Below are positions 39,876 to 53,030 of a DNA stretch of 64,000 nt, piece by piece. Every line of letters begins with the position of its first letter. Positions within the stretch are counted from its first letter, which is position 1. A program made the position numbers and the translations under genes. The notes beneath the pieces were generated by a model. That model made no database searches. It saw only the letters and a program-made list of their open reading frames with translations, and was not told the DNA's origin. The stretch covers positions 128,001 through 192,000 of the IMG/VR virus record IMGVR_UViG_3300009185_000001; one strand, written 5' to 3'. Origin of the DNA: a virus (taxonomy: Duplodnaviria; Caudoviricetes).

Positions 39876-40787
39876 TTATGAAACAATAAGATAATCTTTT
39901 AAATCTATAGAATATGATATAGAAGGATTCAATGGCTTAGTATTTAAATCAGAACTATATATTTTTAAAACTCCATTTATATAGTCTACCCAATTATAGA
40001 TATATTTATTGGTTCCTGTTGTGCCACACAAATCAAATGATGGTGTAAATGTTATTAATGAGCTTGAGACACTTCCATTTACATCTATTTCTATGTGATT
40101 ATTGTTAGGATCAAAATAATTTTGATAAGAATCATATCCAACAGCTATACTATCAGGAATTCCATCGTATGCCAGTCCACCACCATAACCACCCGCAATG
40201 TTGGAATAACTTTGTAAAATAAATGTGATGCCATCAGCCCTGCTGCCTCCACCCATTGAAAATACATAGTAACAAGACCAATTTAATAAATTTGAATTGC
40301 TATCTATAAAATATAAAGGATTTTTATAAAAAATATTTCCGGTTTGGTTTCCTCCTGCTTCTGTAAATCTAATAGAATTTCCTATTTTTGTTGCATTGTT
40401 TAAATAATTAGAGGTATTTAAAACATCTGAATGACTTAAAGAATTTAAGGAAGAATTCCATGTTACATTGTGTAGCCAATGCTCATTAGTTGAAGCTCCA
40501 GTAGATCCACCAAATCCCATATAAAAAGAATTTTTGCCTATTATTGGAGGATTAATTGTATTAATACATTTAATCGGTGGAAGCGGAACGTCTAAAGAAG
40601 GATTTGGAGGACGATTTCCAACAATACCATCTATGCTTGTAGAATAAGTCGAAGGGCTGCTGGAAACTATATATGGATTTCCATGACCTAAATCACAACC
40701 ACAATCTGATGTAGTAGTGACTGGTTCATTTTGAGTTTTTGAAACTGTTATATCATATGATTTTCCAAATCCAATGTAATTTACCAT
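39876..40787 (-). CDS. L-type (legume-like) lectin domain protein
   Basis: IRFTEAGGNQTGNIFY, ADGITFILQ, GGYGGGLAY, SIAVGYDSYQN..DPNNNHI; own TATAAATA at 40797-40804. Confidence 0.8.
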   Translation of the reverse strand: MVNYIGFGKSYDITVSKTQNEPVTTTSDCGCDLGHGNPYIVSSSPSTYSTSIDGIVGNRPPNPSLDVPLPPIKCINTINPPIIGKNSFYMGFGGSTGASTNEHWLHNVTWNSSLNSLSHSDVLNTSNYLNNATKIGNSIRFTEAGGNQTGNIFYKNPLYFIDSNSNLLNWSCYYVFSMGGGSRADGITFILQSYSNIAGGYGGGLAYDGIPDSIAVGYDSYQNYFDPNNNHIEIDVNGSVSSSLITFTPSFDLCGTTGTNKYIYNWVDYINGVLKIYSSDLNTKPLNPSISYSIDLKDYLIVS

Positions 40788-40854
40788 ACTATGTAATATT
40801 TATAGTTACATGCTTAGTAAATTTGTATTTATTTTAAAGTTTGACCCTGCCAAC

Positions 40855-41010
40855 ATATTTCGTATATTATATTCAGTATATTACATTTACTATATTATAT
40901 TTAAATATTATCTTTCCTATATTATATTGATGCATATTATATTTGGTATTTTATATTTGTATATTATATTTCGTATATTATATTTACTATATTATGTTTA
41001 CTATATTAAA
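40855..41010. repeat. Array of 11 ATATTATATTT-like units with 13-15 nt period
   Basis: Units start at 40864, 40878, 40892, 40905, 40919, 40934, 40948, 40961, 40975, 40989 and 41003. Confidence 0.85.
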
Positions 41011-41025
41011 ACAGCTTTATGTTAT

Positions 41026-41275
41026 CACGATAGTTCTTTATCTATCGTTTCTAACTATTCCTAGTTAGATCAGACTATATCTTCACTCTATTTTTTTTAT
41101 AAAAGAGTGTCAGGCGTTCTTGGGAAGAATTACTGTCCGTTTTGGACTCGCTTCCTAGTCGTTGCACCTTCAAATGCATTCCTGCATATGCTTGGTTCAG
41201 GATTGTCCGTTCTGGAGTTTCCCTGAGTTAACCTGATATGGGCCTATTTTTATGTCAAAGAGCTATTTCCATTAA
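41026..41275 (-). ncRNA. Group I ribozyme core in an intergenic region
   Basis: Minus strand: P3 UCAGGU/GCCUGA; P4 UCAGG/CCUGA; J4/5 GAAAC; P6 with GGAA loop; J6/7-P7 GCAACGACUA; P7.1 hairpin; P8 CACUCU/AGAGUG; AAGAUAUAGUCU; P9 CUAACUA-GGAA-UAGUUAG. Ends are approximate. Confidence 0.85.
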
Positions 41276-41310
41276 AGGAATTGTTTATACTTATTTATTA
41301 TATACAATTT

Positions 41311-44300
41311 TTAATTGCAACCGTAAATATTATATTTAGTATCACTTGAATACCAACCAGCAGGAGTCAATAAATTACCAGAATTATCATACGTTCCTCT
41401 TTTTCTCCATCCAAAAAATTCAAATGCAAATGTATATATTCCAACAATTAATGAAATTAAATTATTTGTTTGAAGAATTTCTACTAAATTTAAATTATTT
41501 GTGGAATTTCCGGATTGGCTTTGATTTATTATATTTCCAAATTGATCAATTTCTATCGTAACTGTTATGAAACATGCTTTATGCCTGCTAAAACCTTCTT
41601 CGGGTGTAGATTCTAAAGAATCATAACTATAAATTAACGTTCCATTATTTGTGCAATTATCTGTTGATGGAGGAGTCGGTGGATCGGTTGCTAATGGTGC
41701 GGTTGCCGTTAGCTTTGAATAAGGATCTTTAAACAAACCATAATCATTTCCATATATATCATTCTTCCAATCGGTCATTGTTCCTTTGTTTACAAGAAGT
41801 TCTTTTATTCTATTTTCATAAGAAGATGCTAAAACTTCTCTTCTTAATGTTATTGGATATTTTTCCGCGTAATCCCATGTAGATGGTAAAGGAAATTTCC
41901 AAAAATCAAAATCATCATTTTGTCTACAAAGACCTAAATTATTTCTTTTAATTATTTCGTATTTAGATTGATAAGGAGTAAATTTTTGATTGTTTAATGT
42001 ATCTGTTATTCTACCAGCAGCATCCGAAGAACTATAAGATTCCATCATCCAGCGATTATCAATGTCAGTAATCATGGAAGGAGAGTATTGATCTTTTTTT
42101 GTCAACCCTCTCTGTCTTCCGCTAAATTTATTTGTATTTAGAAACAATCTTTCTGCACTTATACTGTCTATAAATGTAAGAGTATCCTTACTAACTTCCA
42201 TGGAATATCCTCTTCCTCTCCAATATGAAACTCCTAGATTTTCAGGAAGCATATATTCTCCTAATTGCTTTTCTGATTTAGCTAAAGATGGTAATGAAAT
42301 AGTGGCTACTGTAGGATAGAACACATTATTCATGTTTGCATACGGATGAAAAGCTTCTACAGCAACCGCAGTATTAAAAACCGCAAAGGTATTTAAACAC
42401 TTGTTTCTTAGATAAAAATCTTGTGTGTATGTAAAAGCATTACGAGCATAATAGTTATACTTGGTTGGTATAAACGAAGAATAGCTTTCTAGTATAATAT
42501 CACTTGGTTCCTCTGAACTATAGGCAATTAAATCTAAAGTATTACCGTTTCTAAAAATGTCTTGTAAATTTGAAAAATCTTTATAAAATACTATTTTATT
42601 CCATTGATAAGAAGATAGCAAAACATTTAAAGTTAAAGGTTGTGTCCATAATAAATTTGTAATCCCTCTTCTTTGATATGTCATGAAACTTCCATTGGAT
42701 AGTGTCATATAAGATATTTCTGGTTGATGAACAGGTAGATATCCATCTATAAATCTTACTTGACCACCGAAGTACATTAATTGTTTTTCAAAGTGTTGAT
42801 CTAAATTTTCTTCTGGTTTTGTATATGATTTAGCCCAAAATGGTTTTCCCCCATATCCTAAACCAACTCCAGTAAGTTGAAACGAATTTGTAGAATAGTC
42901 CCATCCATTCAATTTCATATTTATTGTAAATGATATTGAAGGAGTAGTAAAAGAAGTATTATTTGATCCTTCATAGGAAACTTCTGATCTGTGTATGTAA
43001 GTCAAATAATCACCAGAACGCAATACCATATCAGAAATATCGTTTGTTGCAATCCATTCTCCAAAAGTATTTCTAATTGCTTTATACCAAGTCGGTACAA
43101 TCGATAGTTTAGAATAACTAAACAATGAAGCCAGATATTGAATAAAATTATTTAAATTTCCTTCTCCATCATACAAATATTTTTGTAAATTAAAGTACCC
43201 ATTTCTACTAGCAATTTGTTGCATATTTTCATTGAAATATGTATTAGGACCAATATCTACCGCATATATTTGTGTTCCTTTGTTTTTTAATTCAAGAGAA
43301 TATGGAACGGCACTTCCAACATTTATTGTTTCATAACCATCGCTCAATATGATTATATTCTTTATAGCATTACTTCTTGGTACGTTTCTATTTGTTTTAA
43401 ATTCTGCCTTTTTCTGAATAATTGCATTTAAAGAATTACAAATTTCAAAAAGACTGTCTGGTTCATTATTATCATATATTGTAGTATTTAAAATATAATC
43501 TGAAAGATACAGTGCATTGTATATGTCAGTCTGAGCAGTGTCTTTTATTGATTGTGATAAAATATCCTGAATAGCAAAATTAATTACATTCAAATCATTA
43601 GTTAAATAAGTGGCAACTAAAGCATTTTCATTGAAAGAAATTATTGAAATCTGTACATTTACATTTCCATTGATTAAGCTAGAAGCAAATTCTTTAACTA
43701 TTTCTATTGTTTTTTGTATGTCTTTGTTTTGTGAATAGCTTTTATCTATGACTATTGATATGTCAAAAACATTATCAGAAGTATTTGTGGTTATTCCTCT
43801 AATGTTTTTATATGGATAATTTACTATTAAATAAGGAGATGCATTATTTTCTTGCTCTGTTGTGCTTGCTACTAAATCACTTCTGAAAGATGTTCTATAA
43901 TATGTATATCTTCTTCCAGTTTTTAAAACCATTCTAGAACCATTTCCTGTTTTCCAAATACCACTACCCCAACCAACTTGTTTATCTCCAAATATTTCAT
44001 CTAATTTATAATAAGAAAATTGAGGACTTTGTAAAGGATTTAAACCTCTTGTATCCAACCAAGTATTAAAAGCAAAATCGGCTCCTAACCCCTGTGGATC
44101 AGCAAATAAATAATCTGCCATTCCGTTATAATCAGTTACCACTTCTCCTGAATGTCCTATTGGAGAATATTTTGTAGATTTACATCTACACTTTGTCCAT
44201 GCAGGTTTAGCATCAAATGGATCCGGATTTTGATAGTTTTGATTTGTATAATAATTATGAGGAGAACGTTTTACATACGGACAATCCGCAGAGTGTTCCC

Positions 44301-46230
44301 TATAAAAGAAAACATCATCCGCTATAGTATCCTCATCCATCCAAACAAACGAAACTTTTTGCTTTGGATTTATTTTAGCACATAATCCTCCCTGAACGAC
44401 ACCATCTATATGAGAAGCACAGTATATAGCATTGGTATCATATATAGAAATAGGATTCCCTCCATCTCTATTTAATAATTGAATAGACCCTGCTCCTAGC
44501 CATGCGGCTTCAATCGGATCTTCTGTTTTTGTATTTAATTTATATATTAAATCCGCATTATTAAAAGAATTTCCTGCAACAGCACCCGTCATTATTTTCG
44601 TAGCATCTACTTCAGAAAGATTAATCGGTAAGCAAGTATCATCTAAAACAGTAATTGGAAGATTTTCATTTAAGGCATCATATTTTAAAATAGGCCATGC
44701 AATATCATTGGTTCCCTCTGATATAGGAAGGTCTGTCTTTTCAAATTTATATAAATATGCTTGTTCTGTTTCACCAGAAAGAGCATCGCTATATGTAGGA
44801 TTTATTCCAGATCCAAAAGATCTTTTTGTCAACGTATCGGCTTCATCTGAAAATTTTTCTGAAAATGCATTGCTATAAACTAAATTCGAATCATTTATGT
44901 ATATAGGAGAGGCAGCAGAGTTTGGAAGAGTATTTGTATAATATTGAGTTAGAATTTCTTTCTTTTGCTCATCCAATAGCTTTAAGTATAAAAAATAATC
45001 ATCATCGTTTAAACTATATCCATCCCAAAGACTTCCTTTTGATGTCAATTTAAATCCAGGATACGGATATATAAATTCTCTCGATGTTTGTGCATTAATC
45101 GTAAACTGCATTTTATCTTCTGCTTTTATTATATTCGGACCTTTAAGCCATGCACCCTCAAGATTTCCTGATTTGTCTGTAAAAAATAAATCAGAATTAG
45201 TATAATCATCACCACCCGCTGCACCAGATTTTACAAACGAGGAATCATTAATAAGAATTGGATTGTATACATTATTAAAAACCGTTTCATCAACAATTCT
45301 GTCACCAGAAGGCCAGTAGAACCAATTATTTCCTTGCTCTAAATCTATATTCATAGTGAAATCTGGTTGATTTATTTCACTTGCCCTAATTGCCGTTAAC
45401 CCATATACAGTTTCACCTAAATATTGTTGTGTTGCAATAATTTCATTATATATTAAATTGCTTGCATTGGCAGACAATGCAGCAGTTGAAAGAGTAGGAA
45501 TTTCTAAAAGATATTGATTAAATAATCTAGACAATGGAGTATCCGCAACTCTTGAAAGATATCTAGTCGAAAGCAATTCCAACACTTCGTTTTCTTCTAA
45601 ACCTTGAAATGGTATTTCATTAACAACCTGTTCTAAATCAACATACTGATTTATTGAAATAGAAGGATCAGAGTCATGATAATTCTGAGAATCGTGCAAT
45701 TCTTCTAATTCTACGAAAAAATTTCCACTAACTGATGAAAGATCAGGAAAATAATTTGATAAAGAAGATATAGGAACCTGTGTAATATAATTCTCGTCTT
45801 TAGTAAATCCTTTTAAAATATATTCATACATCAATGCTTCTAGTCCCATGTTAGAACCTGCCAGATTATAACGAAGCTTTGCATTTTTTACAGACTCTCT
45901 TTTATATGATAATACTTTGCAAACTTCCTTTAGCTTTTTAACGAAATATGGAATTGCAAATATTAATTCTTCATCATTTTTATAATCCAAATCTGCTAGA
46001 AATAAATCTTTTTCTTGCGTACCAAAAAGAAAATTTAAATCTTTTAATAATTGTATGTAATTTTCTTTAATAGCATTGCTATTATTAGAAGTTAATAAAG
46101 TATTACTCCTATACCATTCGCGTAAATATTCTGAATAATATTCCTGTGCGGTATCTGGTTTTAAATTTTTCTGATACTTCAACCAAGTAGGATAAGTTAA
46201 AGGAGATACTGTATTTAATGGTGCTGACAT
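41311..46230 (-). CDS. Giant virion protein (1639 aa) containing a VWA domain
   Basis: MIDAS-like VIDKSYS...TDIYNAL...IIILSDG at about 43150-43770. Confidence 0.72.
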   Translation of the reverse strand: MSAPLNTVSPLTYPTWLKYQKNLKPDTAQEYYSEYLREWYRSNTLLTSNNSNAIKENYIQLLKDLNFLFGTQEKDLFLADLDYKNDEELIFAIPYFVKKLKEVCKVLSYKRESVKNAKLRYNLAGSNMGLEALMYEYILKGFTKDENYITQVPISSLSNYFPDLSSVSGNFFVELEELHDSQNYHDSDPSISINQYVDLEQVVNEIPFQGLEENEVLELLSTRYLSRVADTPLSRLFNQYLLEIPTLSTAALSANASNLIYNEIIATQQYLGETVYGLTAIRASEINQPDFTMNIDLEQGNNWFYWPSGDRIVDETVFNNVYNPILINDSSFVKSGAAGGDDYTNSDLFFTDKSGNLEGAWLKGPNIIKAEDKMQFTINAQTSREFIYPYPGFKLTSKGSLWDGYSLNDDDYFLYLKLLDEQKKEILTQYYTNTLPNSAASPIYINDSNLVYSNAFSEKFSDEADTLTKRSFGSGINPTYSDALSGETEQAYLYKFEKTDLPISEGTNDIAWPILKYDALNENLPITVLDDTCLPINLSEVDATKIMTGAVAGNSFNNADLIYKLNTKTEDPIEAAWLGAGSIQLLNRDGGNPISIYDTNAIYCASHIDGVVQGGLCAKINPKQKVSFVWMDEDTIADDVFFYREHSADCPYVKRSPHNYYTNQNYQNPDPFDAKPAWTKCRCKSTKYSPIGHSGEVVTDYNGMADYLFADPQGLGADFAFNTWLDTRGLNPLQSPQFSYYKLDEIFGDKQVGWGSGIWKTGNGSRMVLKTGRRYTYYRTSFRSDLVASTTEQENNASPYLIVNYPYKNIRGITTNTSDNVFDISIVIDKSYSQNKDIQKTIEIVKEFASSLINGNVNVQISIISFNENALVATYLTNDLNVINFAIQDILSQSIKDTAQTDIYNALYLSDYILNTTIYDNNEPDSLFEICNSLNAIIQKKAEFKTNRNVPRSNAIKNIIILSDGYETINVGSAVPYSLELKNKGTQIYAVDIGPNTYFNENMQQIASRNGYFNLQKYLYDGEGNLNNFIQYLASLFSYSKLSIVPTWYKAIRNTFGEWIATNDISDMVLRSGDYLTYIHRSEVSYEGSNNTSFTTPSISFTINMKLNGWDYSTNSFQLTGVGLGYGGKPFWAKSYTKPEENLDQHFEKQLMYFGGQVRFIDGYLPVHQPEISYMTLSNGSFMTYQRRGITNLLWTQPLTLNVLLSSYQWNKIVFYKDFSNLQDIFRNGNTLDLIAYSSEEPSDIILESYSSFIPTKYNYYARNAFTYTQDFYLRNKCLNTFAVFNTAVAVEAFHPYANMNNVFYPTVATISLPSLAKSEKQLGEYMLPENLGVSYWRGRGYSMEVSKDTLTFIDSISAERLFLNTNKFSGRQRGLTKKDQYSPSMITDIDNRWMMESYSSSDAAGRITDTLNNQKFTPYQSKYEIIKRNNLGLCRQNDDFDFWKFPLPSTWDYAEKYPITLRREVLASSYENRIKELLVNKGTMTDWKNDIYGNDYGLFKDPYSKLTATAPLATDPPTPPSTDNCTNNGTLIYSYDSLESTPEEGFSRHKACFITVTIEIDQFGNIINQSQSGNSTNNLNLVEILQTNNLISLIVGIYTFAFEFFGWRKRGTYDNSGNLLTPAGWYSSDTKYNIYGCN

Positions 46231-52096: not shown

Positions 52097-52231
52097 TCCT
52101 CATTAGACGAATTGGTAAAGTCACGGGACTGTGGGAGAAGCAGGTTAGCGTAATATGAGTTCGATTCTCATAACTCCAAGTCTAATCCCGCGCAGCAATG
52201 CATTCTTCGTTCAAGTCGAAGATGAGGAGCA
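52097..52231 (+). tRNA. Type II tRNA body with a 50-nt insertion in the anticodon loop
   Basis: UCCUCAU/AUGAGGA, D-arm GAC/GUC, anticodon stem CGGGA/UCCCG, variable arm GCA-GCAA-UGC, T-arm CUUCG-UUCAAGU-CGAAG; insert 52131-52180. Confidence 0.75.
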
Positions 52232-52393: not shown

Positions 52394-52736
52394 GGTCGAG
52401 TGGTGGAATGGCAGACACAACGGACTTAGAGAAATTTGAGCTTTGATTGGGAAACCTTTCAAATGTAACTTGTCAAATTCGGTGAAGGGTTTAAACTCCT
52501 AATACCGAGCCAAGCATCGAAAGATGAAGGTGTAGAGACTTGACGGCAAGAACCTAAAGCGAAAGCAATGGTTAAGGTAAAGTCCAGACTACAAACAGAT
52601 TGAGAAAAGTAAATCCCGAAAGGATTGAACAGAGCGGTAAATACGCTGACTGACGAATCTGGTAACGAAAGTTATAGTAGTAAGAAAATCCGTTGCCAGT
52701 AATGGCGTGAGGATTCGAGTTCCTCCTCGACTACCA
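52394..52736 (+). tRNA. trnL: tRNA-Leu(UAA) split by a group I intron
   Basis: Exons 52394-52427 and 52685-52736 rejoin as ACGGA-CUUAAAA-UCCGU; acceptor GGUCGAG/CUCGACU; ACCA. Confidence 0.92.
52428..52684 (+). mobile_element. Group I intron (257 nt) in the tRNA-Leu anticodon, no ORF
   Basis: Follows U34 and ends in G. P1 CUU/AG with UUGAG; AAAUUCGGUGAA; AAUACCGAGCCAAG; GUAGAGACUU; AAGGUAAAGUCC; P9.0-like ACUAC/GUAGU. Confidence 0.9.
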
Positions 52737-52744
52737 ATTTAAAA

Positions 52745-52838
52745 GCAAGGTTAGTGTAACTGGAAGCACCGACAGACTTATAATCTGTGTATCCTAGATT
52801 TGGATCGAGCGTGGGTTCAATTCCCACACCTTGCACCA
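52745..52838 (+). tRNA. trnI: tRNA-Ile(UAU) with long variable arm
   Basis: GCAAGGU/ACCUUGC, ACAGA-CUUAUAA-UCUGU, 22-nt variable region with AUCC/GGAU, GUGGG-UUCAAUU-CCCAC, ACCA. Confidence 0.8.
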
Positions 52839-52945: not shown

Positions 52946-53030
52946 GCACTTGTAACTCAACGCTCTTCTAAAGCGTCCTTTAACGAGTAATTGGATATAA
53001 GGTCTGTTGGTTCGAATCCAACCAAGTGCG
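52946..53030 (+). tRNA. Rearranged tRNA-Arg(UCU)-like gene
   Basis: Acceptor GCACUUG/CAAGUGC, T-arm GUUGG-UUCGAAU-CCAAC and anticodon arm ACGCU-CUUCUAA-AGCGU are intact, but the D-arm parts are out of order. Confidence 0.7.

Follow-up and report, generated by a model that had tools for sequence, protein, structure and literature searches.

Behind a 1639-aa gene of a freshwater jumbo phage lies a group I ribozyme of the T4 td-like kind (subgroup IA), which is genuine and selectively maintained and which probably cuts a message rather than splicing a gene. We prefer message cutting because the predicted cutting site lies behind the catalytic core, not before it. The arrangement suggests that the P1 helix is circularly permuted, with the RNA starting with its guide and the GGGU partner strand of the guide lying downstream of the core, and that the ribozyme acts at this downstream site; to each of these two proposals we give a probability of about one half. 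More tentatively, such phages may carry a natural back-splicing group I family, whose members would cut an upstream virion-type transcript at one set position and release the segment between the two splice sites as a circle.

A td-like group I ribozyme with no host gene

The DNA analysed here (the window, 64,000 nt) corresponds to bases 128001–192000 of a 202,880-bp IMG/VR virus record that has direct terminal repeats and represents a freshwater jumbo phage. Between the stop codon of the 1639-aa ORF and a 303-aa ORF, an earlier note made from the sequence alone had placed an orphan group I ribozyme on the minus strand, and this identification holds. A permissive Rfam search of 40700–41500 matched RF00028 at 41051–41298 (minus strand) over the full model, positions 1–253, with 84.4 bits and E = 6.3e-22 (the gathering score is 50); a whole-genome search returned the identical match. 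The 286-nt stretch folds better than 200 of 200 shuffled sequences (z = −3.7). All the helices that the note had read are present, from P3 to P9 with its GNRA loop, together with P7.1 and a further hairpin, and so are the P3/P7 pseudoknot and the J6/7 and J8/7 consensus of a group I core. The element also has the P7.1/P7.2 insertion, the P9.1 extension and the td-like guide and splice-site context of subgroup IA2 (T4 td type). Its parts are as follows.

41027–41236, minus strand: catalytic core (RF00028, 84.4 bits; RNAalifold on 11 units)
41236–41230 with 41116–41110, minus strand: P3
41227–41197, minus strand: P4–P5
41195–41167, minus strand: P6
41160–41156 with 41077–41073, minus strand: P7, GACUA/UAGUC
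41155–41123, minus strand: P7.1/7.2, 33 nt
41109–41084, minus strand: P8
41068–41051, minus strand: P9, with a GGAA loop
41048–41027, minus strand: P9.1, the further hairpin after P9

An Rfam run over the whole window at the gathering threshold missed this intron, a filter loss, and a multi-locus run missed one related unit (L031) that was found otherwise. Because long or pooled input missed clear RF00028 matches in this way, we regard negative intron scans of long sequence as unreliable.

The surroundings of the ribozyme are the following.

41311–46230, minus strand: 1639-aa ORF with one VWA domain and otherwise no family; stop codon at 41313–41311
41311–41701, minus strand: 3' end of this ORF, encoding a P/T-rich linker and a C-terminal domain of about 110 aa; left part of a window-specific cassette
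41251–41310, minus strand: leader from stop codon to guide, with a small UUCC/GGAA hairpin at 41280–41267
39876–40787, minus strand: 303-aa ORF with a legume-lectin domain (Pfam PF00139, E = 2e-21), outside the cassette

As the note had stated, the ribozyme neither interrupts nor contains an ORF, a tRNA or an endonuclease gene at this locus. Nor is there an interrupted gene whose product splicing would restore: the 1639-aa ORF is already complete, as in its closest homologue, and splicing is therefore unnecessary to finish the protein. We considered and rejected an extension of this ORF by splicing, since the tails that homologues carry past the C-terminal domain are short and show no conservation, and since the window ORF and its closest homologue, P0003, end at the same point. 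Past omega-G, each of the three frames meets a stop within 9 codons.

The ribozyme recurs behind one protein domain

We collected related loci through the C-terminal domain of the 1639-aa protein and through a DNA pattern. The family comprises 11 complete units in 10 loci of uncultured phages, several of which may share recent ancestry, and one further locus (L034) that is truncated by a contig end. The unit-bearing loci (L024/25, L026, L029/35, L030, L031, L033, L034, L036, L037/38 and L040–48) gave RF00028 matches of 36–107 bits or held units that were recognised by eye. Every unit sits directly behind a gene ending in the same ~110-aa domain and begins at, or just past, the end of the domain-coding sequence, and the domains at these loci are only 30–45% identical to that of the window. 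Three domain loci (L023, L027/32 and L028) have no unit. The window intron locus itself is present identically in other freshwater samples, in contigs of public runs.

An alignment of the 11 complete units, when folded with RNAalifold, gave 36 core pairs, and 22 of these show changes on both sides. The covariation by which the earlier note had proposed to judge the ribozyme is thus present, and it extends to P7, where GACUA/UAGUC in the window stands against GCAUA/UAUGC in L029. The catalytic joints J8/7 and J6/7 are nearly invariant. Because 22/36 core pairs carry compensatory changes, the ribozyme RNA is under selection; it is selected for its fold and is not a decaying relic. These changes, and the recurrence behind the same domain, make it more likely that the ribozyme has been put to use, as the note had supposed, than that it is decaying.

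The same evidence bears on the view that the unit is a passenger or structural element without downstream chemistry, whether a stable mRNA 3' end, a DNA linker for domain swapping or a selfish remnant. GGGU and CUG would then be leftovers from a td-like ancestor. Compensatory changes in P3, P4 and P6–P9, including P7 in L029, point to selection on an active fold, as do the near-invariance of J8/7 and J6/7 and the retention of GGGU in 11/11 units although the segment before it varies from 15 to 215 nt. For a passenger speak the short and invariant P1, the exchange of domain, ribozyme, segment X (see below) and GGGU as one cassette between near-identical phages, and the hypervariability of the region (fused in L018, split in L003, other modules in L005). 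We consider this explanation unlikely.

Most loci, 8 of 10, carry a single unit. L040 has two full units in tandem, and in L036 a full unit follows one whose core is deleted. The second ribozyme of each pair is preceded, 47–67 nt upstream of its guide, by a GGGU; this is the normal layout, and such a ribozyme could splice forward. The L040 pair (reverse strand, about 8690–8150) lies behind a diverged member of the domain family, and the same sequence occurs in L041–L048, from eight samples; the guide of its second unit reads AAU-GCCC. The core-deleted copy of L036 (2330–2930) retains the 5' leader, 3' tail and GGGU and precedes the full unit.

These arrays raise the question of whether the units are ordinary introns of tandem arrays, with mini-exons X, that splice forward from GGGU to the next CUG, single units being either reduced or trans-splicing. 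The upstream GGGU of the second ribozymes in L040 and L036 is what such splicing would use. Against it, the single units of 8/10 loci have well-kept ribozymes, the first ribozyme of every array is without an upstream exon, and no candidate trans partner is known. We therefore hold forward splicing within arrays to be quite improbable. Because 8/10 loci carry a single unit, the conserved ribozyme must work without an upstream exon.

DNA pattern scans extended this picture little. Among exact and degenerate patterns, two found nothing in viral contigs; another found one further phage in viral contigs and nothing in genome contigs; and a pattern for the core returned only ordinary gene-borne relatives. 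No family member with a different guide was found by these scans.

A putative partner of the guide lies downstream of the core

Between the guide and P3 there is no P2 hairpin, only 4 nt (AUAU) following GCCC in all units. The guide and the elements to which it relates are these.

41240–41250, minus strand: internal guide, with its P10 part AAAAUAG at 41250–41244 and its P1 part GCCC at 41243–41240
41015–41026, minus strand: 3' tail GAUAACAUAAAG, ending in omega-G at 41015
41014–40844, minus strand: segment X, 171 nt from the CUG at the 3' splice site to its CAG-GGU end; predicted circular product
40855–41008: AT array of eleven 14-nt AT-rich repeats with the core ATATAATATA (tandem repeat finder), within the loop of X
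40847–40844, minus strand: GGGU, the only available partner of the guide GCCC, with a U.G wobble as in td; predicted cleavage after U40844

The whole feature, from the guide at 41250 to the GGGU at 40847–40844, thus exceeds the extent first reported, 41026–41299.

In a standard P1 the 5' exon ends in a U that is U.G-paired to a guide downstream of it, and no such exon was found in the window. Across the 11 units there is no conserved GGGU upstream to partner the guide GCCC. Within 200 nt upstream, GGGU occurs only where Gly-Trp codons read GGG-UGG, and it is absent in the window, L026, L029 and L040 unit 1. Comparison of the 11 leaders shows that the leader is dispensable, since in L029 and L038 it measures only about 3 nt; with the stop codon this close to the guide, these two units have no room for an upstream P1 strand. 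The P1 that the earlier note had proposed (AUUCCU with GGAAAU, splice after 41276) does not survive comparison: it has a mismatch inside, lacks a U.G at the splice site and is conserved in no relative.

Downstream, all 11 units have GGGU, and in each it stands at the 3' foot of a hairpin that has the 3' splice site as its 5' foot; the order is omega-G|CUG...CAG-GGU|(A/C)AA. As read from the sequence, all 11 units accordingly share a permuted layout, in which the 3' splice site precedes the 5' splice site and there is a single guide. The ends GGGU and CUG, if joined, are complementary to AAAAUAG-GCCC (with omega-G at 41015 and GGGU at 40847–40844). The putative P1 has only 4 bp (three G-C pairs and the U.G), and since GCCC and GGGU are both invariant their pairing is without covariation support.

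Between its two feet segment X is variable. It measures 15–19 nt in L029, L030, L031, L038 and L040 unit 1, 25–77 nt in L024, L026, L033 and L040 unit 2, about 215 nt in L036 and 171 nt in the window, where its ends pair together and its interior folds into no more structure than shuffled sequence. The AT array of the window holds five of the six exact window copies of a 10-mer. In the full unit of L036, X contains a 56-aa Cys/His-rich ORF whose AUG lies 5 nt past the 3' splice site.

Could the ribozyme be an ordinary cis-splicing intron of the 3' untranslated region, removed from a polycistronic message, with its 5' splice site between the stop codon and the core, either at 41276 or at UUGUAU|A (41302, with GUAUAA)? 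Relatives in named phages are ordinary introns within genes (Vi06 DNA polymerase, DES1, the qdvp001 terminase and S-CBWM1 psbA); a 6-bp candidate P1 with a U.G can be drawn at 41307–41302/41290–41285, and leaders of the L030 type hold a 6-bp hairpin, AUUAUU/GAUAAU, that ends in U.G. Yet none of the candidate helices has been kept throughout the family. AT-rich sequence is expected to form helices of this sort by chance, and a search for P1 by complementarity alone gave many. With these candidates there is no P10 to CUG and no explanation for the invariant YAG-GCCC, and in L029 and L038 the leader, at about 3 nt, is too short to hold them. An ordinary 3' untranslated intron is accordingly highly improbable.

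Omega-G and P10

The earlier note had placed omega-G at 41026, a position that is U in L024. A conserved AACA followed after 3–5 nt by G, and then by CUG, instead puts omega-G at 41015, in agreement with the comparison with td. The guide YAG-GCCC is likewise invariant in the family, apart from variants on the P10 side in L038 and L040 unit 2. The 3' exon begins with CUG. Besides omega-G, the window has the P10 of a group I intron, and this P10, AAAAUAG/CUGUUUU, is 7 bp long.

None of the control positions at the window locus reached a P10 of 7 bp. In the other units P10 has 1–5 bp, and the family as a whole exceeds its own-locus controls (Fisher p = 7e-8). Where P10 varies it has changed on both sides: L038 combines the guide UA-GCCC with the exon UG, and L040 unit 2 combines AAU-GCCC with GUG. 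L040 unit 1 is left with a P10 of a single base pair. Within X, CUG also pairs with CAG to form the stem, and this hairpin alone could account for the conservation of CUG without P10.

We took the td intron (IA2) for comparison from a T4-like genome (L039, PQ759884). There exon 1 ends in CUUGGGU|, the guide is GAG-GCCU, the intron ends in GAACAUAAUG (also given as AACAUAAUG) and exon 2 starts with CUA. The family resembles td in the GGGU end of the 5' exon, the guide AG-GCC(U/C), the 3' end AACAUAAxG followed by CU, the P7.1/7.2 and P9.1 extensions and the J8/7 consensus GAAGAUAUAGUC. The two differ in that td interrupts the thymidylate synthase gene, its GGGU precedes the guide, and it has a P2 hairpin and carries the I-TevI gene; in the window ribozyme an upstream exon, P2 and an ORF are all missing, and GGGU comes after omega-G. 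The related introns of named phages lie within genes without exception, with P1–P2 immediately before P3.

Transcription of the ribozyme

No terminator and no convincing promoter was found between the 1639-aa gene and the ribozyme. The earlier note had suggested that late-type boxes (AATAAATA/AATAAGTA, 41299–41288) could give the ribozyme its own transcript, which would make it a stand-alone small RNA. In favour of this, boxes of the T4 late-promoter consensus TATAAATA stand 6–58 nt upstream of seven minus-strand ORF starts in the window, so that the phage probably uses them.

40797, 29164, 20700, 33946, 56550, 57827 and 58431, minus strand: TATAAATA boxes before ORF starts

The first belongs to the lectin gene, whose T4-late-type TATAAATA box occupies 40804–40797. 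The boxes before the ribozyme, on the other hand, are near-matches only, with no exact TATAAATA upstream of it, and the count of such boxes in the window, 21 against 15 ± 4, is not above chance. In relatives the upstream stop codon lies inside or beside the unit and leaves no room for a promoter, and the absence of a terminator between gene and ribozyme also speaks against separate transcription. A promoter of its own thus finds no support, and we judge a stand-alone RNA to be very unlikely.

A proposed mechanism

In our preferred reading, that of a permuted P1, the ribozyme would be transcribed as the tail of the message of the 1639-aa gene and would then fold. GCCC (41243–41240) would pair with GGGU (40847–40844), and free guanosine would cleave after U40844, freeing the downstream RNA with an added G. 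The new U-3'OH could then attack the bond after omega-G 41015, with CUGUUUU held on AAAAUAG as P10. The predicted products are an upstream mRNA with the folded ribozyme at its end, a second RNA from downstream and an AT-rich ring, which in the window phage would have 171 nt and eleven AT-rich repeats and a junction in which ...GGCAGGGU is joined to CUGUUUUAAU. The unit would travel with the exchangeable C-terminal protein domain.

That segment X is closed into a true ring is possible, at distinctly less than even odds. Rings of 15–19 nt may be sterically difficult, and since X has only this length in five units, selection more probably acts on the cut, or on a structured mRNA 3' end, than on the ring. 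The cut would not be needed for expression of the lectin, because the lectin gene has its own promoter box. Among the functions that the earlier note had listed, mRNA end processing and circular RNA fit the anatomy of the locus; GTP sensing, trans-splicing and priming of the AT array find no support. Contigs from one metatranscriptome and three DNA runs contained no splice-site joint, and contigs cannot reliably show joints, ends or rare forms.

The unit is part of an exchangeable cassette

A HMMER search with residues 1490–1639 of the 1639-aa protein gave 28 family representatives, which were aligned. They share a domain of about 110 aa with the motif FEFFGWRK...GWYSSDTKYNIY (family form FEFFGWR...GWxSxDxxYxIY), followed by short, unconserved tails. 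An AF2 model of the domain has a pLDDT of about 96. It had no Pfam or PHROG matches and no Foldseek match in the PDB at E <= 0.001; its best VIA-align Z, 5.1, is within the noise range.

The closest relative by flanking sequence is L005/L016, whose flanks are 93.5% and 89% identical. By blastn, homology with L005 ends at 41702 (about residue 1510 of the large ORF); it is found again from 40838 onwards, 50 nt ahead of the lectin start. What lies between is specific to the window: 863 bp that hold the final 130 codons of the ORF, the ribozyme, the AT array and the motif GGCAGGGUCAAAC. In its place L005 has 2250 bp of different modules, and no group I intron was found in any of ten related phage records chosen as relatives of the flanking genes. 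GGGU comes with the cassette and not with the conserved flank: it is missing in L005, whose homology starts right after GGGUCAAAC. Relatives thus differ in whether they keep the ribozyme at this intergenic site, the point that the earlier note had set for comparison: L005, despite its 93.5% identical flanks, lacks the whole ribozyme cassette, and distant phages with the same domain keep the ribozyme behind it.

Behind about residue 1505 the large protein has a hypervariable zone of C-terminal modules. This swap zone (41311–41701 in the window, compared with 10530–12779 in L005 and with L018 and L003) holds another C-terminal domain and two extra ORFs in L005, a direct fusion to the lectin domain in L018 and a split gene in L003. 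We also considered whether the 863-bp cassette, or the 1190 bp absent from L018, might be one long intron linking the large ORF to the lectin domain, and rejected this because the C-terminal 130 aa form a real and widespread domain.

Other introns and tRNA-like genes in the window

A second group I intron lies at 52395–52736 on the plus strand (RF00028 at 52418–52604, 50.5 bits). It sits in a tRNA-Leu(UAA)-like anticodon loop, between U34 and A35, which is the classical position of cyanobacterial and plastid introns in this tRNA; ARAGORN misses the tRNA. Two tRNA-like genes with long inserts follow at 52745–52838 and 52946–53030 (plus strand). One is a tRNA-Ile(UAU) with about 19 extra bases in the variable region; the other scores 35.5 bits as a tRNA, with an insert of 26 bases and a D arm that is shortened. 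There is also a weak tRNA match at 52103–52172.

Discussion

Textbooks treat group I introns as selfish elements, bound to lie within a gene and to be spliced out of it cleanly. Engineered permuted intron–exon (PIE) constructs derived from the T4 td or Anabaena introns make circular RNA. The transcript order is the same as that seen here, 3' splice site, exon, 5' splice site, and in both cases the two splicing steps close the exon into a ring, a step that is predicted for the window. PIE constructs differ from the phage unit in being artificial and in having their opening in a peripheral loop (P6 or P8), which leaves half the core on each side; in the window the break falls in the loop of P1, with the whole core on one side and only GGGU on the other. 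Such constructs are covered in reviews (e.g. PMC4344496). A literature search found no published example of a natural permuted group I intron.

In bacteria, group II introns with a circularly permuted order occur naturally and have been shown experimentally to back-splice and to release RNA circles (Roth et al., 2021; PMC8637638). They, too, are natural self-splicing ribozymes with their domains in permuted order. They belong to another ribozyme class with another chemistry (branching or hydrolysis), and the circle of the window is a prediction from sequence.

A review of bacterial group I introns lists as hosts only tRNA, rRNA and protein genes, in addition to the Clostridioides difficile case, a c-di-GMP-dependent allosteric group I ribozyme in a 5' untranslated region (PMC3984707). 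Like the window ribozyme, the latter lies outside coding sequence, and it is used in mRNA processing. It differs in its P1-first layout, its riboswitch aptamer and its position in a 5' untranslated region; beside the window ribozyme there is no riboswitch aptamer, a permissive Rfam search of 40700–41500 returning RF00028 alone. The lariat-capping ribozyme GIR1 is also derived from a group I ribozyme and cuts RNA, setting the 5' end of a downstream message. It has lost the normal P1 and the guanosine cofactor chemistry and makes a 3-nt lariat, whereas the window RNA retains its guide, omega-G, the guanosine site in P7 and P10.

If our reading is correct, these phages would possess a natural counterpart of the laboratory permutation trick for making circular RNA, and the permuted group II introns reported in 2021 would have their equivalent in group I. 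Phages would also gain a new way to cut or finish a late message, by a ribozyme linked to a swappable protein module, which may serve host recognition.
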